From positions 177,646,897 through 177,710,896 of the forward strand of contig NC_085845.1 in the NCBI RefSeq assembly GCF_035594765.1: DNA of 64,000 bases. Direction: 5' to 3'. The notes beneath the pieces are model-generated. The model was given only the letters and a program-made list of their open reading frames with translations. It had not been told where the DNA came from and did no database searches. The translations under genes were made by a program, and so were the position numbers. This DNA comes from Anolis carolinensis (Eukaryota). Position 1 is the stretch's first letter. Each line of letters starts with the position of its first letter. Of this stretch, positions 25,609 to 62,182 are shown one piece after another.

Positions 25609-26225
25609 GCCCAAACACAAGGAATATGAAAGGTACTGCAGGCTAATCCAACCAGAGGAATCAACCATAGCAGAGCACTTGATGAACCAACCTGGACACA
25701 GCATATTGTTTGAGAACACAGAAATGCTGGACCGTTCTAACAACTATCACATCAGACTACACAGAGAAGCCATTGAAATCCACAAGCATATGGACAATTT
25801 CAACAGAAAGGAGGAAACCATGAAAACGAACAAAATCTGGCTACCAGTGTTAAAAAACTCTAAAAATCAGGACTGTAAATAAAGAACACCACTCAGAAAA
25901 CAGAGGAGTTCCAGACAGGAAACAATCAGGACCACCTGACAGCTCCCAACAAAGGATTCCCCCAGGCAGTAAACAGCCAGACCTTGAAGCTGAAAGGCTA
26001 TTCAATGATAATCAAGTTGGCCAATTACAACATTCACACTTACCTCAAATAGACAAATGTTTTTTCTCCCACAGTGGACCTTCCACATATATATAAACCC
26101 CAATTGTCTAGTTTCTAACAAATCTCAGAACCTCTGAGGATGCCTGCCATAGATGCAGGCAAAACATCAGTAAAAAATGCTTCTGGAGCATGGCCATACA
26201 GCCCTGAAAACTCATAGCAACCCAC
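25107..26225 (+). mobile_element. Degenerate Penelope-like 3' fragment interrupted by an L2-type 3' end (about 25165-25608)
   Basis: GIY-YIG-coding segment at 25107-25155 resumes at 25609 (ORF 25571..25882, ...AEHLMNQPGH...); pLTR follows. Confidence 0.8.
26131..26171 (+). ncRNA. Hammerhead ribozyme relic (probably inactive)
   Basis: CTGAGGA at 26134-26140 and helix II are intact, but GAAA->AAAA and GTC->ATC. Confidence 0.5.
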
Positions 26226-26617
26226 TGGATCATGTGGTCAGTGCAGATTGGGCCATAAGCCCACCATTCCTAAGTATATTTTTACAGAAGACACTTCGGT
26301 AACCCATGGCACCCATGGGATTTGGGGATAATGATACGTTTTAGATTAGATGCTAGATAAATGTATTTTTTGGTTACTTGAGAATTACTACTACTAAAGA
26401 TCCACTTAATACTACCCTTCATTGTTATTGTGACTCTAAGGCCAGGATGAAAAGCCTCAGGCTCCTTCCAAACTGTATAAAATCCACATTGAACTGGGTT
26501 ATATGGCAGTGTGGACTGAGATAATCCAGTTCAAAGCAGATATTGTAGATTATCTGCCTTGATATTGTTGGAAATAGCAACCTCCTACAAGTTTCCTATA
26601 CTATACTAGTTAATAAA

Positions 26618-27170
26618 TCTATAAATATAAATGAGTGATGGAATCCCGGCACCGAGCAAAACAACAAAACTAAACACCCTCCAACCTCCAAATTTGACAA
26701 CACAATCCATCATCCATGCCTCTAGGTTGATACAACAAAAAGAAAAGAAAAATAAAGTCCTAATTAGAGGGGAAGGAATAATTGTTTTTATCCAATTGCT
26801 GCCAGTTACAGGGCTAATCTCTGCCCACTTGGTCTCCTAGCAACCAACTCAGCCAAGGGGACAGGCAGACTTAGGCCTCTCTTAGGCCTCTTCCACAGAT
26901 TATCTAATTTGCACTGGATTATGTGGCAGTGTAGACTCAAGGCCCTTCCACACAGCTATATAACCCATTTATAATCTTATATTATCTGCTTTGCACTGGA
27001 TTATCTTGACTCCATACTACCATATAATCCACTTCAGTGTGCATTTTATACAGCTGTGAAGAAGGGGCCTCATATAATCCAGTTCTAAGCAGATAATACA
27101 AGATTATCAATATACAGTAGAATCTCACTTAGCCAACATAAACAGGCCGGCAGGATAAGTGAATATGTTG
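26618..27170 (+). mobile_element. Second, 3'-truncated copy of the same Helitron
   Basis: Colinear with 10976-11550, including the same internal junction into the mariner-type MITE. Confidence 0.75.
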
Positions 27171-30100
27171 GCTCAACATTTATGCATAGTTTGTTTCCCA
27201 GACTTGGGATCTTACTCTTGAGAAACTGAACTTACTTCCAATAGACTGTAATTTCAAGAGATATGCTATACATTTGATGTCATCAACACAGGATCTCAAA
27301 GAATCAAAAGAACTTTTGGTCAAGGTTTTTTTTTTGGAACAAGCTTTTCAATACCTGTGAAGTCTTAAAAGATATATTAACCAATATTATTTTGCAAAAG
27401 TTGAATGTGTTTATATTATTTTGGTTGCCAAATTCAATTGATGTTTAAATAGTGGAGACTATCACAGTCTGGAAGATACTACTGTGGATTATAACAGTTG
27501 ACTGTACTTATTATTTTCATTACTGTTGTTAACTCTCAGGTAATATTGTATGTATATGGTGCTCTGAATTACATAGTGCAACTTATGTTTTGAAACTTTA
27601 TAGTATTCGCTTATCCTTTTTACATAGAAGGAAGATAGCTCTATACTCAGAGAGGCCTGACTATTTCTGTGGCCTTTGCAAGATGCTCTAATATACACAT
27701 CTCTTTTTTATGTTTTGAACCTTTATAGTGTTTGTTTATCTCTTCGACATTGTCTAGTATAGACATTTGTGTGTATTTATCATCACGTTATATCATACCA
27801 TAAACTTCATATTGACTTGATATTAATATTGAATTGAAATACAGTAATAAAATTAATTAATTAATTGAGACCCATAAACACAAACTTGACTCATCTTGAC
27901 TATTTTACTGTGTTATAAAGACATGTTTTTATTTAAAACTAGAATATATACCTTGCTTGGGTATCACTGGGAGCCAGTGCCCACCTACTTCCTCCCTTCT
28001 CGAGGTCTGAAAAGGCTGACCTCGAAATGTCTCCATGGCACATCTAGCCACAGCCAGCTAGCTTCAATCCTTTTCTTTTCCTCTCCTCTGGGCCCAAAAG
28101 GGGTAGTTCTTTTACTTGAGGTCGCTTCTACATTGCCATATAAAATCCAGATTATCTACTTTGAACTGGATTATATGGCAGTGTAGATGCATGTGGATTA
28201 TCTCATTTTATAATCTGGATACATATAATCTGGCAGTCATTTTAGGTTGAATAATGAAAGATATGTGGACCAAGTTTGGTCCAGATTCATGAAGCCATAG
28301 GTGCCTTTGTGGTACAAGCAAATAAACCAATATATATTTATACATACTTTGACATATGTGTGTGTGTATTATTTGATTTTTGCTATTTCCTTGAAAGACT
28401 ACTATATTAAACTACAACTATGGCTTTCACTCAACCTCTTTTCCTTTGAAGTGTGGAGAAATGAAGGATACAAAGTTGTAGTACACATAGCTTTCTGGTT
28501 CCAAGAATTGCTTTTTATTTGCAGAAGCAGATGAAGCGAAACAGAGAAGGGAACAGAAAGAAGGGGATGTTTTGTTTTTCTTTGTAATTTAAAGATATTA
28601 TAAAATATACAGTAACCCACTAACTACAGAAACTCAGCAAAATCATACAGAATATTCCATGTATTACTAGAATATTTCTTTTCTTATACTGCATGTGAGG
28701 ACTAGATAGAACTATTTCTGAAAAGCAAATGCATATTCCAACTACTATGATTTTACATTCAAATTGCAGCCTCGGGAACCACATAACAATAATATAAGCA
28801 GCAAGCAAAAACAAAACCAATCATTACATTTTTAATCCTAGTCATCAAAGCTGCTCAGACAAAATAAGAAAGGCTTAAAAGAAAGAAAAAAAGCCTTTGG
28901 AAAATGCTGAATAGTTTCTGGCAGCTCACCAATTTCCACTGTTTGTTTTGGAGTGAACAGACGCATAGCTTCTAAGACTTGAAAACCTAACAGATTCTAT
29001 GCAGATTTAGGCACATCAAAGCCCATAATCATTTGGTAATTGTATTTATGCTTAGAATGAAAGCCATGGCCTGGGGTGGGTGGGATAAGGTGTAACTCAA
29101 TGATCTTGCCTAAAATGCATAGCTATTTGGCATTTTCCATTCTGTGGAACCCAAAAAATACTTGATTTGATGTATAAATTGTTAACGGCTGTGATATTTT
29201 ACAAAAACATATATGCATGCTTTCTCTATTGAGTGAACACTGAGTTGGTATTACAATAATAAAAGTAGTACATATCAGTATTATCCTAAATTTGCTTTCT
29301 TTCCCATTAAATGGTGACATAAACATATCACCATGATGGAAGAGGGATGTTTCTCAGTTCAGAAACCTGATGGAAATATATGTATTATAGCATGTGCTCC
29401 TGCAATGTGTATTTGACCACATTTGACCACATACATCACAAGAACAAAGACAAATATGTATAATTAATGTAAAACTGTGGACATGTATTACTTTCTGTCA
29501 TTTCAGACAAAGATAGACATTTGTCATTCTGTAACACAAAGTTCCTTAAACAAAGAAATAAGAAATCTAATAAAACAAAAGTTATCTTCTTAAAGCCTCA
29601 GCAAGACATGTCTGTCAAGTTTTGTGCCTATATTGCAACAGAAACAAACCCAGCTGCTTAAGACAGCAATACTATTCATAATTACCTGAGGGAAAGCTCC
29701 AATAGATTCCAATTTTCATATGAGCAGATAGATCTAGATTTGCACTTTTACTAGTTTGACCTTTCTTCTGCAATTGTGGATAGCTTACAAAGTTATGGGT
29801 TATGTTGCCTCTATATTGCTAGTTGGCCATCATTTAGGAAGGTTCATTGGGTTAGTTGAAAGCATAGCCCCAAAAATCACTCAAGTATTTTGATATCTGA
29901 GGCAGAAAATTTCACAAATCCTTCTCTATTTATAGTGTAAAAATAAATAACACAAAATTAAACTACAGATAGTTTTCTGCCCTTTCATGACACCCAAGAT
30001 CTGTTGCATGATGCAAGTATTTCATTCTTCCTAACATCTGCCATAAGAAAATAGATATTTTCTCATATATCCTGTGGATAATTCTTGTTCATCTCTTTGT

Positions 30101-31599
30101 TATTCCATTTTAATGTGCTTCCCAACAAGATCTTTTGAGATGTTATCTTTATCTGTACTGAAAGAAGAGAAAAATATTTTGCCAGTTTACACGGCAAAAC
30201 TCATTTCACAGTCTAGTGCATCTATGTCTAACAATCCTTTGCATCGCTGCACACGAATGTGCTGTTGCACAAACTTTCAGAGAACAAGGAGCAGTAAAAG
30301 GCTCAGAAGCATGCCAAATATATAACAACTCCCACATATCTGTAAGAACAACCTATAAAATGTCAAAGCAATTCAGAATGTGCAGATTGGAACGTGACAT
30401 CGGACTACTTTCAAAAATGCCAAAAACTAAGACAACCGGAGCACCACCAAACAGGTCAACAAGGCTCTCAATGAAGTGTGCTTTTGAAACAAAATGTCTT
30501 CAGGACATTAGCATTGTCTTGGATGAATGATGGCCAGGTACTGTGTTGCTTTTCAGTTGCTGAGAAATGTCTATCTGGAGTTTAGATGCTGGGACTTTCA
30601 ATAGTGAGGAACTGCACACTCATTTTGCATTGGCTGATCTAGAATATTTCCTTACTGGCTGTGCTGTGCCATGAAAAAACGAGACCAACCTTGATTGCAT
30701 TGTCTTGGTGTATTAGGATCCTGAGTTCTCGTGCTTTGGAGTAAATTTGCTTACTTGGAAGAATTTTCCTTTTTTATTACGACATCTGAAATTGAGAGAG
30801 CTGGGAATCTCAATAGGTAAGTGATAGAAACAATTGTATCTTAAATTCTAATTTCTTCTGAAAGACTGCTACAAATATTTATAGTCTAGTTTTGGTTTTA
30901 ATTTTTCATTCAAAACTTTAGTCACACTTGGGCAGAAGGGTGACATAAAAATGCAATAAAGAAATTAACAATAAATAAGATCTGGCATATCTGATCTCAT
31001 CTTGATCTTTAGTTAATGAATTGGATCTGGACCTATTCATGTTTAGAACAGACCTATGGTAATTATTTATTATTATTATTGACGGCACATAAATCATAAC
31101 AGAATTGTTTCAATCAAGTAACCTGAAGCATAATTTTGTCTGGATCATCATATTTGCCTACAAACTCTAAAACAATTTTAACAGCATTTTTATTTGGTAC
31201 TAACTATGCAAAGAAGACATAACAGGTTTTTTGATGTTTTGTGAGAAAATCTTAAAACCGCTATTCTGTTCTTAGAGGGCTGTCCTTGTAATTTTCTTTG
31301 TTATGGAACTAATTTTGCATTAGAATTCTGGAATCATACCATAATATGTCAATGTTCTAAACATACAAATCAATGATAATAGTTTAGAAGTTATTATTGT
31401 ATCCTCTATTAACTTACCAACTACTACAACATCAATATATAGTTTTGAATTAGTTTGGGATTGTGATTTATGAAGTTATTTTAATAAGAATTTTGTTGCT
31501 TTTGAATATATAGCAAAACTGGTTTAAAAAACAAGAATAAAAACTTTTAGTATTTAACATATTTAAAACTGTTTCTATATCTTTGAGATCACTGCTCTC

Positions 31600-32106
31600 A
31601 TTTCCCCCAGTAGGCAGAAATGCATAGGAAGCACAAGCATATAGAATTGTGGACAATTTCGACAGAAAGGAGGAAACAATAAAAATGAACAAAATCTGGC
31701 TACCAGTATTAAAAAAATCTCTAAATTCAGGATAGTAAATAAAAAACACCACTCAGAAACAGAGGAATTCCAGACAAGAAACAATCATTGGCCAGCTAAT
31801 CACTTCCCAACAATGCATTCCCCCAGGCAGGAAGCAGCCAGACTTTGAAGCTACAAGGTTATTCAGTGCTAAGATGGCCAATTGCTCCATTGCCTCAAGC
31901 AGACAAGAGTTCTTTCTCCCACCCTGGACATTCCACAACTATATAAACCCCACTTGCCTAGTTTCCAACGATCTCACAACCTCTGAGGATGCCTGCCATA
32001 GATGTGGGCGAAACGTCAGGAAAGAATGCTTCTGGAATATGGCCATACAGCCCATAAAGCTCACAGCAACCCAGAGATTTCGGCCATTAAAGCCTTCAAC
32101 AACACA
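31600..32106 (+). mobile_element. Penelope-like element 3' fragment / pLTR
   Basis: Homologous to 42940-43361 (DNFxRKEET region, pLTR, hammerhead). Confidence 0.85.
31973..32022 (+). ncRNA. Minimal hammerhead ribozyme in Penelope pLTR (intact core)
   Basis: CTGAGGA at 31983-31989, GAAA at 32010-32013, GTC at 32015-32017, helix I cct/agg. Confidence 0.82.
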
Positions 32107-34554
32107 TAAGCATAATTGGTATATTTCCCTTTGAAGGGAAAACTCTCTCAAGCAATACAATTATTTGGGGTGTTTTCACACTACATTGTGATTCCACTTT
32201 AATTGCTATAGTTCCATGATATAGAATCCTGAAAATTTAGTTTAAAAAGAGGTATTTATTATTCCTGGCCAAACTGCAAACCTCAAGACTCCATAGGATG
32301 CAGCTGTGATGGTTAGCACGGAATCTCTGTGCAGTAAAAAAAAAATGGCATGAAAGGATCTGTAGACAGAGCATTTATCTATTTTCCAGTAAAGCAAAAC
32401 CAATACAAACATACACACCCATTACAGTTATCAATTAAACAAAAATCAGTTAAACAAAAATTGTGAGGGATTGCCAAGTCTGAAGTGCTCCTTCAGCCTG
32501 AGAGTTTGTGCTGATATCCCTGCTTGTAACTTTTTACTGTTTCTCTGTTTAGCAAGACAGCAACAGCAGCACAAAGATGGGCAATAAATAAATCTTTGTT
32601 GATATCAACAGATTCCTCTTCTGCTACCATCTTATTATCACACCCCTCCACTTGAACCTACTTCCCAGTAAACATGCATGGCTTTTATGAACATAGCACC
32701 TGCCTTACGCATATTGTCGTATTTGAAGATGGGAATGATCTGTGAATTTGCTGCAAGAAATGAAGGTTCTTATAGGTGACTTGGTGCTATACAACTAGGT
32801 AAGCATGCAACCAAGTGACTTAAAAGAAACTGAACATATAAGACTTAAGACAGCATGCCCTATATTTACATTACAAGCAACTACTTTTTAAAATATACTA
32901 AAATGACTTTATCTCATAATTCAATAGGTTGCCCAATATTATACAGAGTCGCGTCCAGTAGCGATGAGTTTAGTGGCTCCTGCAGTACCAGTTGCAATCC
33001 TATATGTCCTTCTCCCGAGTTTAGTAGAAGAGAAAGTGGAATATTTAGGATTTGAAAAATTAATAGTGGCCTGAAGTCTATTAGGATTCCTAAAGTGACT
33101 ATATCACTGTATCAATGGGAATTTGATAAATTAACACAATAGTTCTATCAGTTCAATAGAATTACAATGGTTGAAGCTATCAATTTGATTTAGGCACTGA
33201 TTTTAGTCACAAGAGGACTTTATTTTGTCTAGCTTATAATGTAGGTCTTTGGATTTGTTTTGCTTTTTTCATTGCAGTCTGCCAGTACTGATACTACAAT
33301 AGAAATAGCCGGACGAAAAGCTCATTGGCTCATTACAGCTCAAGAGGTAATACAAAAACCTAATCCATGAATATGTGTATGTGATGAAATGTGCTGGAGT
33401 CCACAAAAGCTGATGCCAAGTAAAAGTTTTTAAAGCTTTAATGTTGTTTTAAATAGTGAGCTTGTTTCTAACTTTTCATAATGGCACTGCCATATCCATG
33501 GTACAGTCAACTTTGGCTATAAAATATCCCAGTAAGAATTAACTGGGCATGAAAAAAAATCTACTGAAGGCGGCAGGAGATAGCAAGGGATAACAGTGGT
33601 TGTTATCTGATCCACATGGAACAAAAGTTGTGAAAGGGAAAGGTTTGTTAAACCCAGAACATTTCAGAATAAATCCATCTTCTGCAGCACTCTTGAATAA
33701 TGATTCTCAGCTTGGGAAATTTGCTAGTAGAAGCAAATTATAATGCCATTTTATAACCAAATTGAGAACTGCCTTCATCAAATTCTGGAACTACCTGGTC
33801 TTTTTAATCAGTAAGAATGTATCCCCTGTAAAGCAAAAGGTTCAGTTCCAGATTCCTTAATTGTCCCAGTAAAGTCGTTACTTTTTTGTCAGGGAAATTA
33901 GACTCACAGATTCTGAATGGCTAACAAATAGACCTGGAATGGGCAACATTCTCCCCCCCACCCATGCTACAACACAGCTAAAAGGGATGTCATTAAGATC
34001 TATATGAAAACAAACAAACAATATAAATAGAATCATAGAGTTGGAAGAGACCTCAAGGACCACCCAGTCTAGCATCCTGCCATGAGTGCGTCAGTCAGAA
34101 AAGGAGTAGGAATCTGTGATAGCTAACAGCCTTTTAAGTATTGGCTTCCTCTCTTTACAGATTTTTAGTGAGAATTGCAGGTGATGTTAACATTTTCTGT
34201 ATTCTATGTCTGGCATCTTAAAGAAAGAAAGCATGTATGCATGTATGACTCTGAATGAATTTAAACACAATTGTCTCAAAATAAAAGGGATCTATTGTCT
34301 GGTGATGTGCCGTCAAGGATGCATATGATATCTGAAAGTGCTGGAGTGTTTGTATAAGACCCATATGTGATATTTCCACAAAAGATTGCCACGTTTAAAG
34401 ATGTTGAGCATACATCTACCTTTAAAAATCTCAGTGCAGTAGGAGGGAAATCATTGAATCACAGAGGTGGGAGTGACAAGAACAATCCAGTTAAATTTCC
34501 TGTCATGCAAAAAGTCACAATCAAAGCACTCCTTAAAGATGTCAATCTATGTTC

Positions 34555-34806
34555 TATTTAAAAATCTCTTTTAAAAAAGGGGACTCCACCACACTCCAAG
34601 GCAATGTATACCATTGTTGAACAGCTCCTCCTACCAGGATGTTGTTCTCATGTTTAAGTGAATGCCTTTTCCGGTAGTTTATTTTCATTGCTCCAAAACC
34701 TAGTCTCTGGAGTAGGAAATAGTTAAACAAGGCTATCATGTCATCCCTTAACTGTCTCTTCTCCAAATTACACCAAACTGTTCCTCATAGGGCATGGTTT
34801 CCAGAC
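34555..34806 (-). mobile_element. Old CR1 fragment
   Basis: Degenerate EKRQLR.DMI..F.Y and V.QW..LP..VVESP motifs. Confidence 0.6.
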
Positions 34807-36865
34807 CTGTTTGTCAATACTGTAAAAAGAGATCAAATTGATGTGATCAGATCAATAAAATCCAAATATACATTTCCAAACTCTGGCCTAAAGCTGAGCA
34901 ATTTATTTGTACAAGTAGCCATGACTGACGTCTTACACATTGCCTCACCACATCATGTCCAGCTGTCTTCTCTGGACACTTGATTTGGTTTATGTAGTAC
35001 ATCTAGACCTGTTCAGTCTCAAAATGTTCCTGTGTAGCCCATAACCTTGACTTGGCATCTACTGAGGTCTGTTCTTGGCCTGGACGTTTGTTTCTGCCAT
35101 GACTTCTCTCTGTAAATATCAGGCAAAGGTTACTATTTGACCCCTCACAAAAGTCCCCATTCAGGATATATATATCCGAGCGCTCTGGATGTCTCATCTT
35201 TGTCATTGTACTGATATGTTAAAACCTCCGTTAAGATTAGGAACCCATTGTGCATATAAGTGTTAGAAGATCTTCCATACAAAGGTTTTTCCACTGATAA
35301 GTATGAGCTATTAGCATGCCTGAGTGTCTAGCGCAGCTCATGTTGTAGATGTGTGTCTTCGCTTCTATAGCTACTCTTTTTCTCTCTGATTCTTGTTGCA
35401 GACCACAGCATGACCCAACTTCTCATGTGACCCTTTCTCATCCCATTCCATTGCTTAGATGAAGGACCCATCTACACTGACCACTTAATGCAGTTGGAAG
35501 CAAGCTTCAAGCTGTGGTGGCAAGACAACAAATTTCTCCAAAAGCACACAGAAGAAAGCTCTTAATGTGCATCAGTTTGTGTAGTCACTATCAGGATCTC
35601 AAACTGATTCCAGAATTTCCAGTGTAATCATCTGCACAGCGAAACCACTTTCTTCAATACTCGTTTGAAATTACATTGAGTGGTCAGTACTGATGGAGCC
35701 TTAGACAACACATACACTCAGTAATGTGTAACAGGCATGTATCTAGTTCTTATTCTATTGAACAGAATAAATTTTCAACCATAGCCCTTACAGCAAAACA
35801 AAACAAAAACAGTAATCCATTTGCAGGTTGTTACTATATGACATAACTGGCTGCCAAATAATGTACTAAAAATGACATTGTTATCCTAGGGTTTCCTTCT
35901 AGTTGATTCCAAAAACTTTGGATCACTCTTTCCTTTTTCCTTTTTTTTTTACTGGATGTTATTAGACAGCAATAACATCTAGTCCTCCTCCTGCCCCAGA
36001 CATTATTTTTCCTAGAAAAACTAAAGATCAGAAATTCGGGCAACAGGAAATTTTGAAGGTCAAAAGAAAATAACAAAATGTTTCATACTGACACCCTGAT
36101 ATGCTCTGTTAGAGGCAGGTCACTCAACTACCACCGAGAAAGTGTCTTGCTATAATAAGAGGAAACATCTATGAATAAATAATGTTTCCAAAGCTTCTTT
36201 CCATACTATGGAATGGTTCAGTGATAGAAGTGAGCTCAAAGTATTAGGAGTTTAATCTAACAAGGTCTCCCAAAGAGCTTTAAATCATCAGACAGAGTGG
36301 AAGCAATCTTTAAAAAATTACTACAATAGCCACATTGGGTGTAGTTTGTGAAACACAGGCATGGACAAAAAAGGAAATAAAGGAGTCATCCTTTATCTTT
36401 CAAGAAATGTACTATCAGTCATTTGACTATCACTATCACATCAATTGTGTGCATTGCAAAGAATAGTTAATGTTTAGCATGGACACGATATTGTTTAAAG
36501 ATTTCTTAAAGTTCTCATTTGATGTTTAGTTCTCTGAAGTTTCCAGCCTAGCTGGTTGCAATTAAAGTATTTATTTCAGTTGGAGACAAGATTCATTTTC
36601 TACTCTCCAAGGATTCACCAAGGTAATGACAGCCAACTGGTTTGGTGATAATTTCCCTAAGGGCTGGTGAGTAAGTGGATGGGTCTCTTCATTTGGTTTG
36701 GTGGGGGAACCCTTAAGTTCAAGGAAAGTACTTTTCATGCTTACTTGGGGAATACAATACAACAAAAACTTGCGAGGTCTGGGCTGTAGAAGACAAGATT
36801 ATTGCTTTTCAACAGATTTAGGCAAAACAGGAGTCATTTTGTAACAAAAATGCTTGGTTTCAACT

Positions 36866-37155
36866 TTTTGTGTGTGTGTCAGGAGCAACTTGAGAAACTG
36901 CAAGTCTGGTTTGAGATAATTGGTCATCTGCAAGGATGTTGCCCAGGGGATGCCCTGATATTTTGATATTTTTTTTACCATCCTTATGGGAGGCTTCTCT
37001 CATGTCCACGCATGAAGCTGGGGCTGATAGAGGGAGCCCATGCGCGCTCTCCCCGGGTTGGATTTGAACCGGCAACCTTCAGGTTAGCAATCCAGCCTTC
37101 AAGTCATCAGTCCTGCCGGCACAAGGGTTTAATCCACTGCGCAACCGGGAGCTCC
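36866..37155 (-). mobile_element. tRNA-derived SINE (same family as 46503)
   Basis: Reverse complement shows A/B boxes and the shared 3' end GCTCCTGACAC..AAAA. Confidence 0.85.
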
Positions 37156-37548
37156 ACAACTGAATCACAACTTGTACAGATTTGTTGTAAATATAAAGTG
37201 TGCTTGTCATGAGCAATTCAACATAGAAATACTGTTGTGTAACAAAAGTACTATCCTGTGGACAGCTGAGAGATTTGGTTACACTGTTGAGGCCACTTGA
37301 TCTACAATTCAAGCAAATTTGGTGTTCTGCAGATAAGTATAACAAAAATGGAAGAAGACTTATAATCGGTAAGAGTGCTCTTTTGTTCCAAAATAGAATA
37401 GCCCAAATTGTTCAAATGATAAAGTTGCTATAGAGTGTAAGTTAGAGGGTAATATAAGATTGATGGTATAAGAGTGGAGGCAAAGGGAAAAAATTAAATG
37501 ACACATGTTTTAACAGGTATTTTTGAAAGGGGAGGAAAAGAAGAAATT

Positions 37549-37651
37549 ATGAGTGCCTGTAGTTTTTTGCTCCTTTTGAGCATCTCCAGCTTATGCCTCA
37601 ATGCTAACCCCGGCATCAAAGTGAAGATTACTGAAGAAGGTTTGCATTTTG
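37549..37651 (+). CDS. BPIFC: BPIFC coding exon 1 (signal peptide)
   Basis: MSACSFLLLLSISSLCLNANPGIKVKITEEGLHF; donor g|gtgagt; upstream acceptor at 37515-37516. Confidence 0.9.
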
Positions 37652-38564
37652 GTGAGTTGCAAAGATACATGTTCAAAATTGTAACTTAATGAGGGGAAAA
37701 GGATGTTCCTTTAGATAGCTGATTACATTGGTTTTAATATGTTGTGTGTCCTCATGTCCTTTCCGACTTATGGTGACCCTAAGGCAAACTTACCATGGGA
37801 TTTTTTTAAGGCTAAGTGTACATGACTGTCCCAAGGTCACCTAGTGGGTTTCCATGATCGAGCAAGGAATCAAGCCATGCTCTCCAGACTCATATCTCAT
37901 CTCACAGACAAATTTAACTAGTCCTCTGACAAAAAATACTTTTTCCTCCTGGCAGGTAGATGCAAAATGAAAAGCTATACCCAGTTTTGGCTCATGCCCT
38001 GCCAAAGGTTGGCACCCAGTTCCCAACAGATTACTTATGCGGGATCTCATCTTTAGTGGACCAAGTTCTATTTTGGTTCCATAATTAAAGTGGTTTGTGC
38101 TTTTAGCCTTAATATTAAAACTTGCTGACTAAACATCAAGCAGTGATTAAGCTTCAGATAGTAAGCTAATGTGGGGTATCCTGCAGTATGACCGTCTCAA
38201 GACATGAAATTCTTTAAGGACTTTTAAAAATTCACTTTTGAAACATGGATAAAACCTTGTAGAGGCCAATGCATTCCTCTTAAAACTATCTGTCAGGAGT
38301 ACAGCTCTTGTCAACAACACTCCATATCATTTGGAGCTTTTGAGTCATCTTCAAGAGCAGGCCTATGGATTACTTTGCAGTAATCAAGCCTGGAGGTGAC
38401 CTGAATGAGTATGGCAAGGTCAGGCCCATCTAAAGGGAGATAAACTTATACATCTGATTAACTGAATGAAATCCACATTGACTTGTGGAATTAAAGTGGA
38501 ATGGACTTTAAAATATCATTTGCATTTTTCTGTATGCATCACATTTTTTCATCCAAACATGCAG

Positions 38565-48208: not shown

Positions 48209-48209
<1 letters not shown>

Positions 48210-48345: not shown

Positions 48346-48407
<62 letters not shown>

Positions 48408-48409
<2 letters not shown>

Positions 48410-49338
48410 GTATTATGACACAGCAAACAAGATAGAAATGCTGGATTTCATATCACAAAATCACAAGTCGAACACTTCCCAAGTGTCTAGGACTGTGTGA
48501 TGTATTTTCGGATGATGCGTGCAGATCCCAGCAGGGTGGCCTTTTGCAGTTGGCAGATCGTAATTTTGTCAATGTCTATTGTTTCCAAATGCCGGCTGTG
48601 ATCTTTTGGCAGGGCACCCAATGTGCCCATCACCACCGGGACCACCTGCACTGGTTTCTGCCAGAGTCTTTGAAGTTCAATCTTGAGTTCCTGATAGCGG
48701 CTGAGTTTTTCCTGTTGTTTTTCGTCAATGCGACTGTCACCTGGAATGGCGACATCAATCATCCAAACCCTTTTCTTTTCCACAACTGTGATGTCTGGTG
48801 TGTTGTGTTCCAGAACTTTGTCAGTCTGGATTCGAAAGTCCCATAGTATGTTTGCGTGCTCATTTCCCAGTACTTTTGCAGGTTTGTGATCCCACCAGTT
48901 CTTTGCTGCTGGGAGGTGGTACTTGAGGCATAAGTTCCAATGAATCATTTGGGCTACATAGTTGTGCCTCTGTTTGTAGTCTGTCTGTGCAATTTTCTTA
49001 CAGCAGCTGAGGATATGATCAATGGTTTCGTCAGTTTCCTTGCACAATCTGCATTTTGGGTCATCAGCTGATTTTTCGATCTTGGCCTTAATTGCATTTG
49101 TTCTGATGGCTTGCTCCTGGGCTGCAAGGATCAGGCCTTCTGTCTCCTTCTTCAGGGTCCCATTCATGAGCCATAGCCAGGTCTTCTCCTTATCAGCTTT
49201 TCCTTCAATTTTGTCAAGGAACTTTCCATGCAATGTTTTGTTGTGCCAGCTGTCAGCTCTAGTTTGTAGTGTGGCTTTCTTGTACTGGTTTTTTGTCTGC
49301 TGTGCTTTGAGGAGTTTCTGATTTTTGACTTCAATCAA

Positions 49339-49339
<1 letters not shown>
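48408..49339 (-). mobile_element. R4-clade (Dong/Rex6-like) non-LTR retrotransposon, 5'-truncated
   Basis: ORF encodes a CRLC..H....C zinc knuckle, RHN, PDITVV...IDVAIP and EKLSRY restriction-like endonuclease motifs; flanked on both sides by (TTA)n. Confidence 0.9.
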
Positions 49340-49392
<53 letters not shown>

Positions 49393-50110
49393 CCAAGTAG
49401 GAGTGATATATAAAGAGTATGCCCCCATTTCAGATAAAGCACGTTATGACTTGGGAATTTTTTATTTTGCCCCCCCCCCCCCAAAAAAAATTAATCAATT
49501 TTCAGCACCTAAGGTTTCTGAATGTGTCGGGGGGGGGGGGGGGGACGGAAAAGGACTTGGGCATTGCATCATCCCATCCTGTTTCTAAGATCTGCAACAA
49601 ATATTGAGCAAAACTAACTGATGGGATGTTTGTATCAAATTTGTCTGATTATTCTTCTACAGATAGTAATAAAACTTATTCAGGTGTTATTTTTATTTGT
49701 TGTGGTTGCAATTCAAAGTACAAGACAGAAGAAATCGCCCCAAAACGTATGGGTTTTTAACAGTACACAATAATAGCACCGTGATTCTATTTGAATTGCC
49801 TTATGGATGTAATTAAGAGCTCTAATTCCTCACCATACTGTAAACCTCAGGATTTCAATGTATTTGTTGAAGCAGAATCATAGAACTATAATTGTGTGAT
49901 ATGAAAAGTCCCTTATTGTAGGTCTTGGATCTTCATAAACATGATTTGGAATATCATGTTGAAAACATTCAATTTAACTCAAAAATGTATTATTCTACTA
50001 ACAGCACCATCACAAGAAGCATGATCAGATTATTTTTAATCCTTTTTTTATCTTGTTATATGGATATCTTTATCTTATAATATCTTTTTTTTGTCCCCTA
50101 CTCTTAACAG

Positions 50111-50202
50111 ACCGGATCCAGCTTGATGCATTTGCAGTAATAGACTACTCTTTGGTAAAACCTCCATCTATTTCGCTGGCATCCATTAGTGTGGATTTTA
50201 AG
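50111..50202 (+). CDS. BPIFC: BPIFC coding exon 7
   Basis: taacag| ... |gtaaca; RIQLDAFAVIDYSLVKPPSISLASISVDFK. Confidence 0.92.
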
Positions 50203-50472
50203 GTAACACATTAACCTTACATCATATTTTCAGAAATTTCATAAAGATAACTGTGTTCATCATTGGAATAAGTTACAGATGTTTAAGTTTCTTACAATCA
50301 AAACGAACTTTTCCAATATCTGCAATGAAAGGTCATCCTTAGATATCAGCAAAGCTTCAGCCATTGCAACCTTAATTTCAAGAGCTGATATGACAAGCTA
50401 ACATGTCTTTATCCCCAAGTTTTTGGGATTCTGAGAACCTTAATATTTTATTCTTCATGTCATTCTTTTCAG

Positions 50473-50646
50473 GGGGCCGTCTACTCAGCACTAAACAGAA
50501 CACAGCTTTCTTTTGAGCCGGATCCTTTCCATCTCCCAAACACACGTGACTTTATGCTCTATATAGGAATCTCAGAATATTTCTTTCGTTCTGCTTCACT
50601 GGCTTATTACACTTCTGGGGCTTTTGATGTTTCTATTGAGAAGGAG
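50473..50646 (+). CDS. BPIFC: BPIFC coding exon 8
   Basis: ttcag| ... |gtaaga; GAVYSALNRTQLSFEPDPFHLPNTRDFMLYIGISEYFFRSASLAYYTSGAFDVSIEKE. Confidence 0.93.
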
Positions 50647-51923
50647 GTAAGAATAAGCTATGTAAGATTAATACTGTCTTTCAAAGAAAAAGATAATGAG
50701 TATCTGTTTTTCTATGGAACAGTATTCCATGCATAAGAGCCTAGTTGCCAACGTGGTTAGCTTCAGTTTGTTGAGGGGACAAAGGACACGAAAAAGACAA
50801 ACTCAGAGCCCAGAATTACAAAATACTCCCAAGACTCTGCAGTGGCTTCATTTGTCCAGCTCTAGGAGCTAGCTCTCTTTCCTAGATCTGTTCTCCAGAA
50901 CCATTTCCAAGGACAGCTCTACACAGACAATGTATCCTGAGTCTGGGGAACGTGGAATGGCTGTGTAAATGATTGCTGCCAGTTCCATCTCGGAACCAGT
51001 CCAGCTTCTTACATAGGTCCAAAGTTACTGTTTGCTCTGCATTCTTGGGGTTCATGCAGTTCAAAGGTGTATTAAGCAGGCTTGGCCAGCATTAATCCAA
51101 ATCAACTCCATGTTTCATTTAGTTACAACAGAGCTGATTTACCCACTCTGTGGGATAACTCCTCAATATAGATGTGCCCCAAGAGAAAAAGGCAGCTTTA
51201 CCAGAGCCAGGTAGTTGAAACAGGACTGTCCTCATTGTTAGGCAGTCATGCAATTTCTCCAAACAGATTTTGGGTATCATGAAGATGCAGTAAATTCCTA
51301 GTTATTTATTCTGTTATTATATTGTTGTTATTTTTTACTTCTGGCAGTTATGCCCATTGACTTGAGTGAACAGTGGTATCATCTACTGCTCTGCTTTAGG
51401 TAGCCTAGCCTTGTGTCTTGAGCCAGTCTTCAACAGAGTGGGTATAGACATGTTCAGTACCAGATGTTTTCTCTGAGAATCTGGTATTGGAAATGCCAAC
51501 TTGACAACAGGAATTCTGAAAATCTGTTGCCTCCATCTCATTGGTGGAAGAACATTCTTGTTTGTGGTTTAGATTTATCTGGTTTCCTTTTTGTTGTGGA
51601 AAAAGGGTATCATTCAGAATGCCACATACAAGCTTTGGGGTTATGTCATACTCTTCCTCAGAACATGTGATTGCTCAAGAGCAACTAACAAAAAGGAGCA
51701 GTTAGCCGGTTTCTGAGCATGGGCAGAGCAAGACCCTCCTTGCCTACTATTGTTGGAAACAGGAGATGTATTCGTAGACATTAGTTAGTATAGCCCTCCT
51801 ACAATCCAAAGTAGGAGTGATTGTGACCTTCTGAGACTGCAGCTTCAATTCTTAGCCATTGGCTGTAATGAGTTGGCCAGGGCTTTCATGATTTTTAGTC
51901 CAACATCTGCTATTATTTTAAAG

Positions 51924-52058
51924 CAGTGGTTCCCAACTTTTGGGCCTCCAGGTGTTTTGAACTTAAAATCCCAGAAATCCCAGCCAGCTTACCAGCTGCT
52001 AGGAAGTGTGGGAGCTGAAGTCCAAAATACCTGGAGGCTCAAAGGTTGGAAACCACTG
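51924..52058. mobile_element. Palindromic hAT MITE
   Basis: TIR CAGTGGTT.CCAAC; perfect 8-bp TSD TTTTAAAG. Confidence 0.85.
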
Positions 52059-52209
52059 TTTTAAAGTGCTGCATTAAATGTATATGCCGAGGCAAAGCAC
52101 AGTAGAGTTTTCTTTGCAATAATTGTTGTAAGCTAGTAAGCAAACCAAATCAATGCACTATTCAAAACACACACATTTGTTTCTCATTACATTTTATTTT
52201 AATTCTCAG

Positions 52210-52263
52210 CTTTCCGCTTACTTCAGGTTAACTACAGAGACTTTCAACAATATCATTCCCACA
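52210..52263 (+). CDS. BPIFC: BPIFC coding exon 9
   Basis: ctcag| ... |gtaagt; LSAYFRLTTETFNNIIPT. Confidence 0.88.
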
Positions 52264-52418
52264 GTAAGTTCCTTTATGTTTATTATCTAAAAGAAACACA
52301 TTCTTCTGCAGTTCCAAGTGTTCTAACCAAGAATGAGTTGCTTTATCAAAGTTTATAAAACAAACAAACAAATAAATCAATCTGTCCTCAATATTTTTGT
52401 TGTTTTTCAACTCTATAG

Positions 52419-52589
52419 ATTGCCTTTTATTATGGGGTATCAAATCCAGTAATGATGAATCTAACAGTTACAGCGGCACCTGTGATTAGTCTTCACAATG
52501 GTCGATTTCTCCTTGACCTGTCTGGCTCCATGGATGTGCTGGTAGTTCAGACAAATTTCACAACTAACTCCATGTTCACCTTGAATATA
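52419..52589 (+). CDS. BPIFC: BPIFC coding exon 10
   Basis: ctatag| ... |gtgagt; IAFYYGVSNPVMMNLTVTAAPVISLHNGRFLLDLSGSMDVLVVQTNFTTNSMFTLNI. Confidence 0.91.
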
Positions 52590-53359
52590 GTGAGTACAAC
52601 ACAACAAAATCACTCCCTTTGGGCTTCTTTACCTGCAAGAATCTTTGATACTTGACTTGCCATCAAAATGTAGTATTTCAAAGGGACACAGCTTGCTGCC
52701 TTTCTACCTTAAGAATCTTATGAATTATTATTGTTATTGTTATTATTATTATGTTTATTTACACCTCGCTTTTTCTCTTCACAAAGGAGACTTAAGAATA
52801 CTTAAGCAGGCAATACCATACTAGCTGGATAGATATCCAGACTTGACAAAAGAGAAACCTAAGAATTTAAAGAAAACTGAATCAGAACAAATATATAATC
52901 CAGCTTTCGGTTCACTCAGTGATCAAACCGATGCCATAAGCACAATAGGACTTTCTTCTTGGGCTTCCACACAAAGTGATATGTGTTTAGATGTGTCCTC
53001 CCTTCATATAATTATGACTAGGAACAATGATAGTTTTATCTTTAAAAAATAGCTTCCTGTTGTTTATTGTCTTGTTTTCACTGTTTTTCACTCCTTGTGC
53101 CCTTTTTCTGCTTCCTTTTTTATTTTGTTAAAGTTTAATTATTCAAAAACTTCTTAAAAATTAAATAGAAGAGAGGATTTTCCAAATGTTTAGTTCCGTA
53201 ATTGCTTTGGAAAATAAAAAAAATGATATGAAAAAGGAAAGGAGAAATATGATACCCAAGTAAGCACACCTTTCTCACTTTGCTTTGCAAAATGCTTTGG
53301 TATTATTGCCTTGCTGTAAAAGAGGAGAATGATAAATGTAGACTTTCCCCCCAATACAG

Positions 53360-53427
53360 ACAGCCAAAACCCACATCAACATGATCATATTTGAAAAGAA
53401 TTTGATACCAACTTTATGTCTGGACAG
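53360..53427 (+). CDS. BPIFC: BPIFC coding exon 11
   Basis: tacag| ... |gtaatg; TAKTHINMIIFEKNLIPTLCLD; 68 nt gives the phase needed for the next exon. Confidence 0.83.
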
Positions 53428-54774
53428 GTAATGTTTGGTTGGATTTTTTTGACCTGCTGTATTTGTGAAGACCCCTTGAGTGCAATAGACTGATGAAACA
53501 ACTGAAGTTGCTATTCTCTTTAACACGATGTTTCAATTAAATTATTGTTTAAATCAAGGATACTACTAACATTAAAATCGTCTAACCCTTAATGTGTTTC
53601 TGTCTTGCTTCAGGTGGGCAAGACAAACCACAGATTTTGCTAGAGTTTAATTAAAATCAAAACATTCTCTTGTTGGGTCATAGTAATTTAATCACGGAAT
53701 TAAAAAATATATAGTATGGGAGACTCGTGCTAGTTTTTATAGGGAGTTAATGTCCTTCAGTTAGATGATTGGTTACAGTTGTAGAGGTTTCTTCCCCCAG
53801 CAAGGGTCTGGTTCCAGGCATTAATAAATTAACCAGTGAATCTCCTCATCCAGCCTGTTAGGGACATCGCATATTACAGAAACCAATACTGGTTCCCTTG
53901 TCATTTTAATCATGTCTTTTTAAAAATCTATACATTTATTATGTTTTCTGCAATATAAGTATTATCATACAATTTACAAGGACAATAATTTCCCCTCTCT
54001 GGCATATCTATATACATCAATTTTAAAGTAGTTTTCCCCACCCTCTCTATTACAAAACAATAATCAAAATAATAATAAAAAATTATGGGATCACCATGTC
54101 TTTCTGAGCTAGGCTTGGCTGGATGTAGCAAGGCAGATGAGCCTTGTCTTCCTTATGACTAGACCAGCATTCCATGGCAATACCTCCCAATGTTGCTGTG
54201 ACGAAGTTTACAATATGAACAGCAGATGAAAAGTGTGCAGTTGAGGTTGAATGATGGAAGTAAACTGGCCTTACGGATCCTGAAGGGTGCCTTAAATACC
54301 CTGGGAGTGGACATCAGTGAAGCCTATATCCTGGCTTCCTCTGGACCTACTCAGCAACCACATAGATACTTCTAACTGGCCATCTTTCCTGACATTTCCC
54401 AGAACCTGAAAAACTGAATGAAGTAAGGTAGAGAATTCAGATTTCCTTTGAGCCAGATAATTTGTGACCATCGAAACTTAAACTGTTAATGTAAAAGCAG
54501 AAGGCTCAGCATTGTTTGTGAACCATAATGGCAAAACCAACAAAGTGCTCAGGTTAGGTATTTAGTGCTATTTAGAGGAAGGGAGTAACCAGCCCTAGGA
54601 CCAGTGTCATATATGTGTTGTTAATGAAATACGTTACATAAAGTAGAAGTTCTATCAGTCCTGGCTGGCAATGGTGTGATCCTGAGAGTTTCCGGCGAAC
54701 AATGTCTAGAGGGCACAAAGTGCCTAACTCTGATGTACAGAATTCACTCTGAAACCTTTCCTTTTCTTTCACAG

Positions 54775-54817
54775 CTTTGATCTCGCCTTGGCTCACTCCA
54801 CTATTGGTTTCTTCAAG
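54775..54817 (+). CDS. BPIFC: BPIFC coding exon 12
   Basis: ttcacag| ... |gtaaat; (S)FDLALAHSTIGFFK. Confidence 0.88.
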
Positions 54818-55292
54818 GTAAATTTTAGCCTATAGGAAAAGCAACCTGCAGAAAATAAAGTCAAATGCAGCATTTGATAAACAATTTCATTGCATGAAAA
54901 TGTGTTTCTTAATTTGACTTTGGCATGCAATTTGTATAGTGGGGTTCTTTTGGTGATTGGTTTATTACCCTTTTTGTTCCAATTTTTCTTCCCCTCAATT
55001 TTCTTTCCAGACATATTTAATCATTCACAGACTACTACAAGCATACAGTGACCAATGGCTTAGGCACCAGAAGTTCTTTATCAAAATTCCCATAATAAAT
55101 GCCACAAAATCATAATATAGGAGCTTGCTTGCTTTCCTATCTTGTTCAGATTAGAAAATTCTCAGAGATAGTTCCCAGTGCTCATAAAACAGTATCGGTC
55201 ACACAAAGAAAACAATTCTCAGGGGAAATTCCCACTAGTTATCCAATTTTTCAATTCTTCTTTGTGCTGTCACATTTTCTTTAACATTTCAG

Positions 55293-55356
55293 GCTTCAAT
55301 TATGAAGAATTTCATGTCTTATATTTTACAAAAAGGAGTAATTCCAGCAGTCAATG
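55293..55356 (+). CDS. BPIFC: BPIFC coding exon 13
   Basis: tttcag| ... |gtaagt; ASIMKNFMSYILQKGVIPAVN. Confidence 0.89.
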
Positions 55357-55427
55357 GTAAGTATGGTGCTTGGGTTGTCTTCTCACTTCTGCAAATTATA
55401 AAGAAATTAAAGGAAATTGTATATTGT

Positions 55428-55545
55428 TTGGGTTGCTATGAGTTTTCCGGGCTGTATGGCCATGTTCCAGAAGCATTCTCTCAATGATTGCCGGAAAACT
55501 CACAGCAACACAGTAATTCTGGCCATGAAATCCTTCGACAACACA
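55428..55545. mobile_element. Short inverted pair of Penelope pLTR tail fragments
   Basis: Minus-strand tail piece (55428-55482) followed by a plus-strand tail piece (55490-55545). Confidence 0.7.
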
Positions 55546-56472
55546 TGGCATATCTTTTGTTTCTTGCTCCTTTTTCATGGATAATATAAACATAATCATA
55601 ACAAGAAATAAACCAATGTTATTCCAGTAAGTTTTTAAACTGCTTCATGATTAATTGGAGCTTGGTTCCATGTATGCCCACTGCTAAGAATTGATTTAAA
55701 GGACCATAACTGACAAAAAAACCCTGTTTATTTCCTCCTGCCTCCATGATGTGAAGACTTTATCTTCCCAAATAAATCGACTAGTTTGCGATTCTCCTAT
55801 ATACAGACCAGTTTGCAGTTCTATATACAGACCAGAAAGTATATTGGCTCAGGCTGATGATTTCAGATACTGTCTTTGGAAATTCCTAGAACAATTCACA
55901 GCAGTAACTACTCTGTTGTACTTGTATTATGTAGTTATATAGCAAACTCTGGTTGTTATATAACTACATAAAAAAATTCAGGAAGCATCGAGACTTTCCA
56001 TTTACTTTTGATTGTGCCTACATATCCCTACATTCGCATCCTATCTCTTTCTTGAATTACCCCAGGTTTATTCTCCTTTGTATTCTTCCATCTCCTCCCA
56101 CTGAGAATTCGATTTTGAAAAAATTGGCTTGTTGTGGAAATGAGAATTGGTAATAGAGTTTCAGTGGAGACCCCTTTTCCCCATGATAAAAACTCTTTCA
56201 AGAGTGAATTTCCTTTCCGAGGGGTAGATTCCTCTCACTGCTTGTCGTCTCACCTCCATTCTTTACTATAATTCATTTGTAATTGGGTGTTGGTCCCCAA
56301 GTTACATATCACTTTTCAAGAATAAAAACACACACATATACTTGTTTAAGCAGTAATACACAAATTGGGATCAATTTTTAAATTAATCCTATGAGCGTTA
56401 CTGTACCCATGACTAAAAACTCTGTTATTATTGTTTAATAATGGGGTTTTTTTTAATGCTCTCTTTTTAAAG

Positions 56473-56549
56473 TCAATCTGAAGGATGGGGTTCCTCTCCC
56501 TGTCTTGGACACAATGGTTCTTGTGCAGCCTACTATTACAATGTACCAG
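56473..56549 (+). CDS. BPIFC: BPIFC coding exon 14
   Basis: tttaaag| ... |gtgagg; (V)NLKDGVPLPVLDTMVLVQPTITMYQ. Confidence 0.89.
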
Positions 56550-56594
56550 GTGAGGTTTACAATACCTATGTCTTTTCGTTTGGTGTATCTAGAG

Positions 56595-56729
56595 CAATGG
56601 TTCTCAACCTGTGGGTCCCCAGATGTTTTGGCCTTCAACTCCCAGAAATCCTAACAGCTGGTAAACTGGCTGGGATTTCTGGGAGTTGTAGGCCAAAACA
56701 CTTGGGGACCCACAGGTTGAGGACCACTG
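56595..56729. mobile_element. Palindromic hAT MITE (SPIN-like TIR)
   Basis: TIR CAaTGGTTCTCAACCTGTGGGTC; perfect 8-bp TSD ATCTAGAG. Confidence 0.88.
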
Positions 56730-56778
56730 ATCTAGAGAGAAAACAACCATGCTGGTTAGCATGAGAATGTAGGATATA

Positions 56779-57430
56779 CAGTGGAAGCATCCTAACTTAA
56801 GAGCATTTTGAGTTAAGAGTTGTTGCTTGGCCCAGGGTTCACTTTGACATAAGAGCAGGATTTTGAGTTAAGAGCTAGCGCAAGAAGGAACACTAGTGCA
56901 AGAAGGAACACTAGTACAGGGCTTTAGGAGTTCAAGGGAGTAGCCTCTGTGCCCCATGCTCTTGTCCACTTTGGGAAATTGCTGTCCGCTTTGTTCTTGT
57001 CCACTTTGAGAAACTTTGAGTTAGCTGACTTTGTGTAGCTTTTATTCCTACTGTGTTTGGCTTCATGACGAGAGAGAGGGGGAAAGAGAGCAAAAGAAGA
57101 AATGAGGCTGAAATGACTACAGTATGAAGAAAATGATGCTTCTGCCTTTCACTTTGTGCTTTGTACTTCCTTGCCACAACTTTGTGCTTCTATTATTTTA
57201 AAGTTGATCTTTATTTTATTATTTCACGTGAATGTGCATTTGTACATTATTTGTTATTTATATAGAACATTTTCTTATTTAAAAACACATAACAAAAATG
57301 GGAGGGGGGGGCTGGGGCCCCAGAACAGATTAATAGCATTTCAATGGGAAAATACACTTTGAGACAAGAGCATTTTGAGTCAAGAGCTCTGTGACAGAAC
57401 CAATCAAACTCTTAAGTCAAGGCATCAGTG
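56779..57430. mobile_element. Tigger/pogo-like MITE
   Basis: TA-flanked; degenerate TIRs with internal ACTTAAGAG subterminal repeats. Confidence 0.6.
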
Positions 57431-57633
57431 TACATAGAATGTAGAAAGTCAGCAGCTGCTCATATCCATCTTGAGGTTCTCATTTGTTGTTCCCTATAAT
57501 TACTACCAGTGATGTAACAGGATTCTCACATTTGGATATAGATGCAGGCTGATGTATATTAGACAAAATTAATTCACATTATTTATGAAGGAATGTTAAC
57601 AATAGTAAGGCCATTGTTAATTTGTCTTTTCAG

Positions 57634-57711
57634 GGCTACTTGCTAATTTCCACTGATGCTAAGCTCAAGCCCACAAATATTTGGAAACACAATCATATAC
57701 GCACCTTCTGA
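57634..57711 (+). CDS. BPIFC: BPIFC terminal coding exon
   Basis: ttttcag|; GYLLISTDAKLKPTNIWKHNHIRTF*. Confidence 0.9.
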   Translation, partial: GYLLISTDAKLKPTNIWKHNHIRTF

Positions 57712-60812: not shown

Positions 60813-61559
60813 GTGTAACTCCCAACAAAGACATCCAATTCACCATGGGAAAATAAAATAAAGGGAAATCTATCATTTCTAGATGTCTTAGTCATCCGCA
60901 AACCCAATCAACAATTGGGCCACACAGTTTACAGAAAACCTACACACACAGATAAATACCTACATCGAAACTCCAACCATCACGTAAGTCAAAAAAGAAG
61001 CGCAATTAAAGCCCTGGCACACCGTGCCAAAAGAATCTGCAAACCTCACCTCCTCCAAAGTGAACTAAACCACCTAAACTGGGCTCTACAAGTAAATGGA
61101 GACTCCACCACAGACATCAGAAGAGCTGCAAAGCCAAGAACAAGCCATGAGAGTAAAGGCAAAGAATCACCCAGAGGAAACGTGTTCTTCCCATACATCA
61201 AGGGAACCACTGACCACAGAGGGAAGCTGATGAAGAAATACCACCTACAAACTATCTACAGACCCTCTAAGAAAATCCAACAAATGCTACGTTCAACAAA
61301 GGAAAAGAGGGATCCTCTCACCTCTGCAGGAGTCTACCGTATCCCATGCAGCTGTGGACAAGTCTACATAGGGACCCCCAAATGCAGCAGCATTGCCCAA
61401 ATGTGAATCAAGGAACATGAAAGGCACGACAAACTAATCCAACCAGAGAAGTCAGCCATAGCAGAGCACTTGATGAACCAACCTGGAAACAGCATATTAT
61501 TTGAAAACATAGAAATACTGGACCACTCTAACAACTACCATATCAGACTACACAGAGAA

Positions 61560-61824
61560 AGTCTCCGATGGCCTAGGGGATAAAAGCTTTGTGACTTGAA
61601 GGTTGGGTTGCTGACCTGAAGGCTGCCAGGTTCGAATCCCACCCAGGGAGAGCGCGGATGAGCTCCCTCTATCAGCTCCAGCTCCATGCGGGGACATGAG
61701 AGAAGCCTCCCACAAGGATGGTAAAACATCAAAACATCCAGGCGTCCCCTGGGCAACGTCCTTGCAGACGGCCAATTCTCTCACTCCAGAAGCAACTCCA
61801 GTTGCTCCTGACACGAAAAAAAAA
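61560..61824 (+). mobile_element. tRNA-derived SINE nested in a Penelope fragment
   Basis: B box GGTTCGAATCC, poly-A tail, 13-bp TSD ACTACACAGAGAA at 61547-61559 and 61825-61837. Confidence 0.9.
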
Positions 61825-62130
61825 ACTACACAGAGAAGCCACTGAAATTCCAGTATTTTAAAAACTCTAAAATCAGGACAGTAAGTAAAGAACACCACTC
61901 AGAAAACAGAGAAATCCCAGACATGAAACAATCAGGGCCAGCTAACACCTCCCAACAAAGGATTCCCTCAGGCAGGAAGCAGCCAGGTCTTGAAGTTGCA
62001 AGGCTTTTCAATGCTAATCAAGATGATTAATTACAACATTTACACTTGCCTCCGGAAGACAAGAGTTCTTTCTCCCACCCTGGACCTTTCAGAGATATAT
62101 AAACTCCACTGGCTTAGTTTTCCAATATAC

Positions 62131-62182
62131 CTCACAACCTCTGAGGATGCTTGCCATAGATGGGGGCGAAACATCAGGAGAG
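62131..62182 (+). ncRNA. Hammerhead ribozyme motif, partly degenerate
   Basis: CTGAGGA at 62141-62147 and GAAA at 62168-62171 are retained; GTC->ATC breaks the ACGT palindrome. Confidence 0.6.

Follow-up and report, generated by a model that had tools for sequence, protein, structure and literature searches.

Hammerhead copies and their source element

The 64,000-nucleotide stretch of the Anolis carolinensis genome analysed here (contig NC_085845.1, positions 177,646,897 to 177,710,896; hereafter 'the window') carries five copies of a minimal hammerhead ribozyme motif. Judged by their sequence, the five are ends of Poseidon_Ac (PAc), a Penelope-like element (PLE) of the green anole that belongs to the Penelope/Poseidon clade of retrotransposons. 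Positions in PAc are numbered from the A of its start codon (+1), and the predicted ribozyme cut falls between C+29 and A+30. The PAc-related features of the window, which include an open reading frame (ORF) with a reverse transcriptase (RT) domain and a pseudo-long terminal repeat (pseudo-LTR), and the host gene around them are:

26131..26171, plus strand: minimal hammerhead with a broken core, in a 5'-truncated PAc copy (25609-26224) that ends at about +84; probably intergenic
30715..57690, plus strand: host gene with a BPI/LBP fold, three of the five copies being in its introns (from at least 30.7 kb; 3' limit approximate)
31980..32020, plus strand: minimal hammerhead with an intact core, in PAc fragment 31648-32105 that ends at about +117; sense, in intron 30817-32611 of the 5' untranslated region (UTR) of the BPI-fold gene
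41544..43151, plus strand: 5'-truncated PAc ORF, 535 amino acids from stop to stop, which contains an RT domain and, close to the C-terminus, a GIY-YIG-type motif (VYRI...VYIG)
43152..43361, plus strand: PAc pseudo-LTR (-126..+84) with a TATA-like box at about -51; ends the 5'-truncated element
43269..43309, plus strand: intact minimal hammerhead, with the ORF start codon from A9 (43278) and the predicted cut at 43306/43307; sense, in intron 40037-44580
43779..43916, minus strand: short PAc insertion (about -22..+117) flanked by an 11-bp target-site duplication, its intact hammerhead being at 43904-43864; antisense, in intron 40037-44580
55428..55546, no single strand: head-to-head PAc stub without a hammerhead core (sixth copy, inverted), with arms +32..+84 and +64..+117
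62138..62178, plus strand: minimal hammerhead whose palindrome is lost through G16.2>A and whose helix II has a broken pair; it closes a decayed PAc copy (60831-62231, to about +84); probably intergenic

All five motifs were confirmed where a sequence-only reading of the window had placed them. The catalytic core (CUGANGA, GAAA, NUH) is present in four of them, the exception being 26131 with its G12>A change. The core pattern is matched 4 times in the window compared to 0.01 expected from 100 shuffles, the five motifs being copies of one repeat and not independent. The three intact copies (31980, 43269 and 43864) share CUGAGGA, GAAA and GUC, a 3-bp stem I, one extra U after A9, a 6-bp helix II closed by G10.1-C11.1, and the palindrome ACGU that represents a stub of helix III. 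All four pairs of this palindrome are kept in these three copies and two of the four in 26131 and 62138. The core, stem and palindrome checks bear out the description of the motifs as Penelope-borne minimal type I hammerheads with a vestigial palindromic helix III. No hammerhead family was found among the 44 matches of the Rfam covariance models to the window at E values up to 5.

The proposal that the inactivating changes are CpG to CpA transitions holds in part. In the 26131 copy, G12>A and G16.2>A are both of this kind, and so is G16.2>A in the 62138 copy. Both copies contain non-CpG changes as well, a G>T in stem I of the former and one that breaks a helix II pair in the latter. The GTC to ATC change reported at 62138 is present, but it costs the palindrome only, as all catalytic letters remain and the triplet is read as AUC.

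The assignment to PAc was made by comparison with a published element. Segment 43152-43361 is identical in 207 of 210 bases to the PAc RNA template of PMC11167929 (Frangieh 2024). In this by-eye comparison the three mismatches are all within the 126-nt UTR and none is in +1..+84; sequencing contigs have the other letter at these three positions. The RT ORF is situated upstream of the pseudo-LTR, where a Pfam match to RVT_1 (E=9e-14) was obtained in 41544-43148. The GIY-YIG-type motif was read by eye in the translation and has no Pfam match at an E value of 0.1. The hammerhead of the published element and those of the window agree in sequence, in start-codon position, in cut site and in having two 3' ends.

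The biochemistry of this ribozyme has been described in PMC11167929. The ORF starts at stem II, and the cut is 26 nt past the start codon. The hammerhead alone does not cleave; it cleaves in the presence of PAc protein, which is a predicted dimer, and this assisted cleavage is abolished by the C3G or G8C mutation. The ribozyme is dispensable for insertion, which is normal in core mutants, and RNA-seq reads ending at the cut site were absent. The minimal RNA for activity includes about 172 nt of the ORF, and priming in vitro begins at two RT start sites that match +84 and +117. Thus the element, its ribozyme and the dependence on protein are already known. The main text of that paper, as far as it was available, deals with a consensus in vitro and does not cover genomic copy counts, CpG decay, intron orientation or the pairing of +84 and +117 ends described below.

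Related motifs have been reported from other animals. The available parts of PMC4209133 (Cervera and De la Pena 2014) describe minimal hammerheads of PLEs as dispersed motifs that number in the thousands and show little activity, dimers included, and those of PMC6765202 likewise call them poor cleavers even as dimers. The claim that such hammerheads cleave efficiently as dimers is contradicted by these accounts, so far as they go, and by the inertness of the PAc ribozyme without its protein (PMC11167929). In what could be compared, the PAc motif resembles the metazoan motifs of PMC4209133 in being type I, in the absence of a real helix III, in the palindromic 15.2-16.2 positions and in the extra base before G10.1, as well as in its thousands of dispersed single copies, its opposite-strand pairs and its low activity in vitro. 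It differs in a copy number about ten times that of Xenopus tropicalis (9,000) or the coelacanth (4,000), and in a stem I of just 3 bp.

The non-LTR retrozymes, to judge from the available text of 10.64898/2026.07.22.740005, are also PLE-derived short hammerhead repeats. However, they are tandem non-autonomous units, reported to be depleted from introns, whereas the window copies are dispersed truncations of an autonomous element. No tandem non-autonomous monomers bounded by hammerheads are formed by the five copies, which are dispersed and in three cases retain ORF remnants. Elsewhere in the genome (L088:4560-5120, L044:9490-9965 and G000:C16:3484527-3486327), PAc end units of 80-180 nt, each containing a hammerhead, are repeated in small tandem arrays. 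Cis dimers could form in such arrays, unlike in the dispersed copies, and the arrays resemble incipient retrozymes.

Abundance, CpG decay and orientation of the copies

The PAc end is very abundant. The 35-base intact core has 14,934 exact matches in the 1.85-Gb genome, and a 33-base anchor tolerant of decay at the two core CpGs has 19,910. Recovery by this anchor was calibrated on an untargeted sample of 117 copies spanning the motif (158 minus 36 targeted and 5 window copies). It recovers 31 of the 117, which corresponds to about 75,000 copies genome-wide. The introns of long genes contain 41 copies in 790 kb, or one per 19 kb, from which about 96,000 copies are expected. Five or more copies in 64 kb have a Poisson probability of 0.12-0.24, and the density of the window is ordinary for this genome. 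The suggestion that self-cleaving RNAs are seeded at high density through host genes is therefore not sustained: the density is the genome average, and just three of the five copies are within a gene. Splicing of that gene passes over an intact sense copy: a GT..AG joint (30814>32610), found in contigs of runs presumed to be RNA, spans the 31980 motif.

The core contains two CpGs, C11.1-G12 and C15.2-G16.2. Among the anchor matches 8,887 are intact, 2,940 have C11.1>T, 1,511 have G12>A, 793 have C15.2>T and 977 have G16.2>A, compared to 317 for three non-CpG transitions combined within the same anchor. CpG transitions are 7.5-28 times as frequent as non-CpG ones, so that decay of the methylation type is real at the core CpGs, with methylation itself as the presumed cause. 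Both core CpGs are altered in 4,802 copies, about five times the expectation for independent changes. An amplified subfamily was considered as the source of the C11.1>U excess and found unsupported, since TG occurs beside CG in seven of the eight listed marker groups, the youngest being CG-only.

Inactivation is not what this decay is aimed at, because G12>A is about half as frequent as C11.1>U, a change that keeps G12 and leaves a G-U pair. A control CpG outside the ribozyme, at +65/+66, is altered equally, in 29 and 30 of about 103 copies. In the untargeted sample all catalytic letters are kept in 70 of the 117 copies, and core, palindrome and G10.1-C11.1 together in 19 (~16%). G12>A is involved in 16 of the 47 broken cores; the other 31 are without it, some of them being truncation junctions. 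The idea that the ribozymes are switched off by methylation-driven CpG decay is right in that CpG transitions are the fastest changes of the core, but a targeted switch from CpG to CpA is contradicted by these counts.

The orientation of the copies was examined in the introns of four long laminin-G (neural) genes (loci L001-L079), the source of the 41 copies mentioned above, which constitute 30 independent clusters. Twenty copies are sense and 21 antisense, with an intact core in 12 of 20 and 13 of 21, respectively (p=1). A strict definition of the intact state gives 5 of 20 and 2 of 21 (p=0.24). By clusters, 11 are sense, 13 antisense and 6 mixed. At the low power of this sample there is no sign of counter-selection against intact sense copies.

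The hammerhead itself varies little among the copies. None of its 37 non-CpG positions has a variant at a frequency of at least 10%, as compared to 16 of 71 flanking positions (p=0.001). Helix II alternates between TG (100 copies) and CA (7 copies), both of which are paired. Such low variation points to constraint acting in the replicating element.

Ends of the copies, head-to-head pairs and interpretation

The ends were mapped in 191 copies, 11 of 202 having been dropped for a locus edge or a low score. The 3' ends peak at +84 and +117, in agreement with the two published RT start sites. The 5' ends peak near -20, with 34 of the 191 at -23..-18, eight of these from one tandem array. This peak is about 30 nt past the TATA-like box at about -51, and we infer that PAc RNA starts near -20. 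The cut would therefore be made in the first 50 nt of the RNA, behind the start codon. A predicted hairpin (-17..-13 with -5..-1) would mask the hammerhead core. According to ViennaRNA, the double-hammerhead fold of the intact copies is 17-24 kcal/mol above competing dimer folds, which may hint at an off state; the hint is weak because the non-standard contacts of the core are outside the model.

Copies made from ribozyme-cut RNA would begin at the cut site, and their preservation in the genome was considered and rejected. In the sample, 12 of 191 5' ends are at +30..+37. Genome-wide counts, corrected for the pass rate of each pattern, are 997 at +13, 355 at +23, 314 at +28, 469 at +30 and 243 at +33, with no specific peak at the cut site; about half of the +13 ends and part of the +30 ends are microhomology deletions. 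The absence of an excess is in line with uncut RNA as the template. A recurrent 12-nt deletion between two GATG words, which removes the 5' side of helix II, was noted in about half of the first 100 matches listed.

Many copies are arranged head to head. Such insertions were collected from loci L003, L056, L058, L069 and L081-L140, and from the window (55428-55546). In the discovery set, 20 of the 22 informative pairs have one long and one short end, and four further pairs have an unclassified end. In a test set from 20 loci the same was found in 22 of 22, one of which repeats a discovery locus. Overall, a +84 end is paired with a +117 end in 41 of 43 independent informative insertions. The unpaired copies comprise 62 short, 49 long and 33 other ends. 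A flanking duplication of 8-16 bp surrounds the whole unit in 33 of the 48 listed pairs (threshold at least 6 nt).

The pairing of one long with one short end suggests twin priming of both target strands at two sites, and both strands are probably primed on one RNA. Inverted pseudo-LTRs with a one-sided tail of 30-40 bp are described in the available text of PMC3846280 and PMC8557442. The elements treated there, as far as the text goes, are similar to PAc in their head-to-head arms, the tail on one arm, the duplication around the unit and the TATA-like box in the pseudo-LTR. However, the tail is presented in those parts as optional or frequent and is ascribed to self-priming or endonuclease resolution, whereas in PAc the rule is obeyed by the 41 of 43 pairs. 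Fold-back self-priming, as proposed in the accessible part of PMC3846280, is nevertheless also compatible with the head-to-head pairs. PAc is the one PLE whose two priming sites are mapped, and a literature search found no paper on PLEs that uses the term twin priming.

A more general scheme can be proposed tentatively, although it is somewhat doubtful. In this scheme twin priming would be obligate: a protein dimer would prime both strands of a break at +84 and +117 of a single uncut RNA and copy to the 5' end of the RNA, which would explain the one-sided Penelope tail. The hammerhead, triggered by the protein, would act as a switch and feedback brake by removing cap and start codon, and the ~10^5 genomic copies would be dormant by-products.

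The five motifs of the window are, with high probability, end fragments of PAc that are likely to be inactive passengers in host RNA and decay by ordinary CpG mutation. Reverse transcription of PAc starts just downstream of the ribozyme, and the motif is for this reason copied along into the end fragments. Since copying sets out from +84 or +117, the uncut motif is present in almost all copies of more than about 100-130 nt. In PAc's own RNA the hammerhead would occupy part of the first 50 nt, straddling the start codon. It would be folded off by the predicted competing hairpin and, by the published data, needs bound PAc protein to cut. Cutting would cost the RNA its cap and AUG, so that the likely role of the ribozyme is feedback on the element's own RNA and not an effect on host genes. 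After insertion, the copies would mutate neutrally and fastest at CpGs.

Were the copies instead active self-cleaving RNAs that damage host pre-mRNA, their decay from CpG to CpA by methylation would switch them off and would be favoured by host selection. This is very improbable. CpA changes are indeed found in two of the five window copies and CpG decay is fast, with at least one core CpG altered in 55% of the anchor-matching copies, but the inactivating change is the rarer of the two at its CpG, the control CpG decays equally, sense copies are not depleted, splicing proceeds across an intact sense copy and no protein-free cleavage occurs in vitro (PMC11167929). Dormant copies might also be cleaved in trans in cells that produce PAc protein, the germline for instance, if a protein dimer paired the ACGU palindromes of two RNAs and some host transcripts were cut as a side effect. 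The assistance of cleavage by a protein that is a predicted dimer (PMC11167929) is in favour of this possibility, as are the 4-bp palindrome of three window copies and the 19 of 117 sampled copies that keep core, palindrome and G10.1-C11.1. It is nevertheless unlikely, although less so than autonomous cleavage: the active RNA needs about 172 nt of the ORF whereas the dispersed copies stop at +84 or +117, many copies are in inverted pairs that would form duplexes, and there is no orientation bias.

Several observations weigh against the passenger interpretation. The C>T and G>A changes are unequal at both core CpGs, with ratios of 1.95:1 and 0.81:1 genome-wide and 51:16 and 11:30 in the sample, whereas the control CpG is even; both excess changes are synonymous in the overlapping ORF. 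Sequence context may well be behind this asymmetry. The 41 copies (30 clusters) from four long neural genes leave room for a modest orientation bias. Constraint on the ribozyme and constraint on the protein are not fully separable, because the first 11 codons lie in the conserved stretch as well. Finally, the start of transcription near -20 and the feedback role were both deduced.

The motifs as originally reported mean little, since the literature already covers the element, its ribozyme and the dependence on protein, and repeats in general undergo CpG decay. What the analysis usefully adds is a set of negative results (no sign of a targeted switch-off, an orientation bias or a fossil of cut RNA) and the end-pairing result. 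No other Penelope-like element has an in vitro system, and the rule obeyed by 41 of 43 pairs bears on how the telomerase-related enzymes of PLEs insert.

Host genes and neighbouring repeats

The BPI-fold gene is, going by synteny, presumably BPIFC-like. Its intron 40037-44580 was deduced from the GT/AG ends and the open frame, the joint 40036>44581 not being among the joints listed. This intron contains both the sense copy 43269 and the antisense copy 43864, which is a separate insertion flanked by an 11-bp duplication. The complementarity of the two copies is 99% along 106 nt, and a 106-bp duplex between them is predicted in the pre-mRNA. The two young insertions (43256-43361 and 43812-43917) thus form a near-perfect inverted repeat that may give rise to double-stranded RNA or be a target of editing. 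In the 5' UTR of the same gene (region 33344-37515), contigs contain a further joint, 33344>35400, as an alternative.

An F-box gene, which from synteny is presumably FBXO7, extends to about 23 kb on the minus strand. SYN3 and LARGE-like genes are located next to the window, and the copy samples were taken from other loci. At the other side of the window an RtcB-family gene begins at 62523, downstream of the 62138 copy. The PAc end with its TATA-like box (62138-62231) precedes the RtcB-family start codon by about 290 nt and points in the same direction, probably by chance. RtcB ligase joins the kind of RNA ends that hammerheads leave.

Other repeats are present in the window. A 3' fragment of a non-LTR retrotransposon (47140-49443, minus strand; zf-RVT-like match, E=4e-4) is surrounded by nested inverted repeats with AAT/ATT tails. 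Inverted repeats resembling miniature inverted-repeat transposable elements, at 62658-62873, 56590-56734 and 51919-52063, give weak matches to Rfam mir-5408, under the gathering score.

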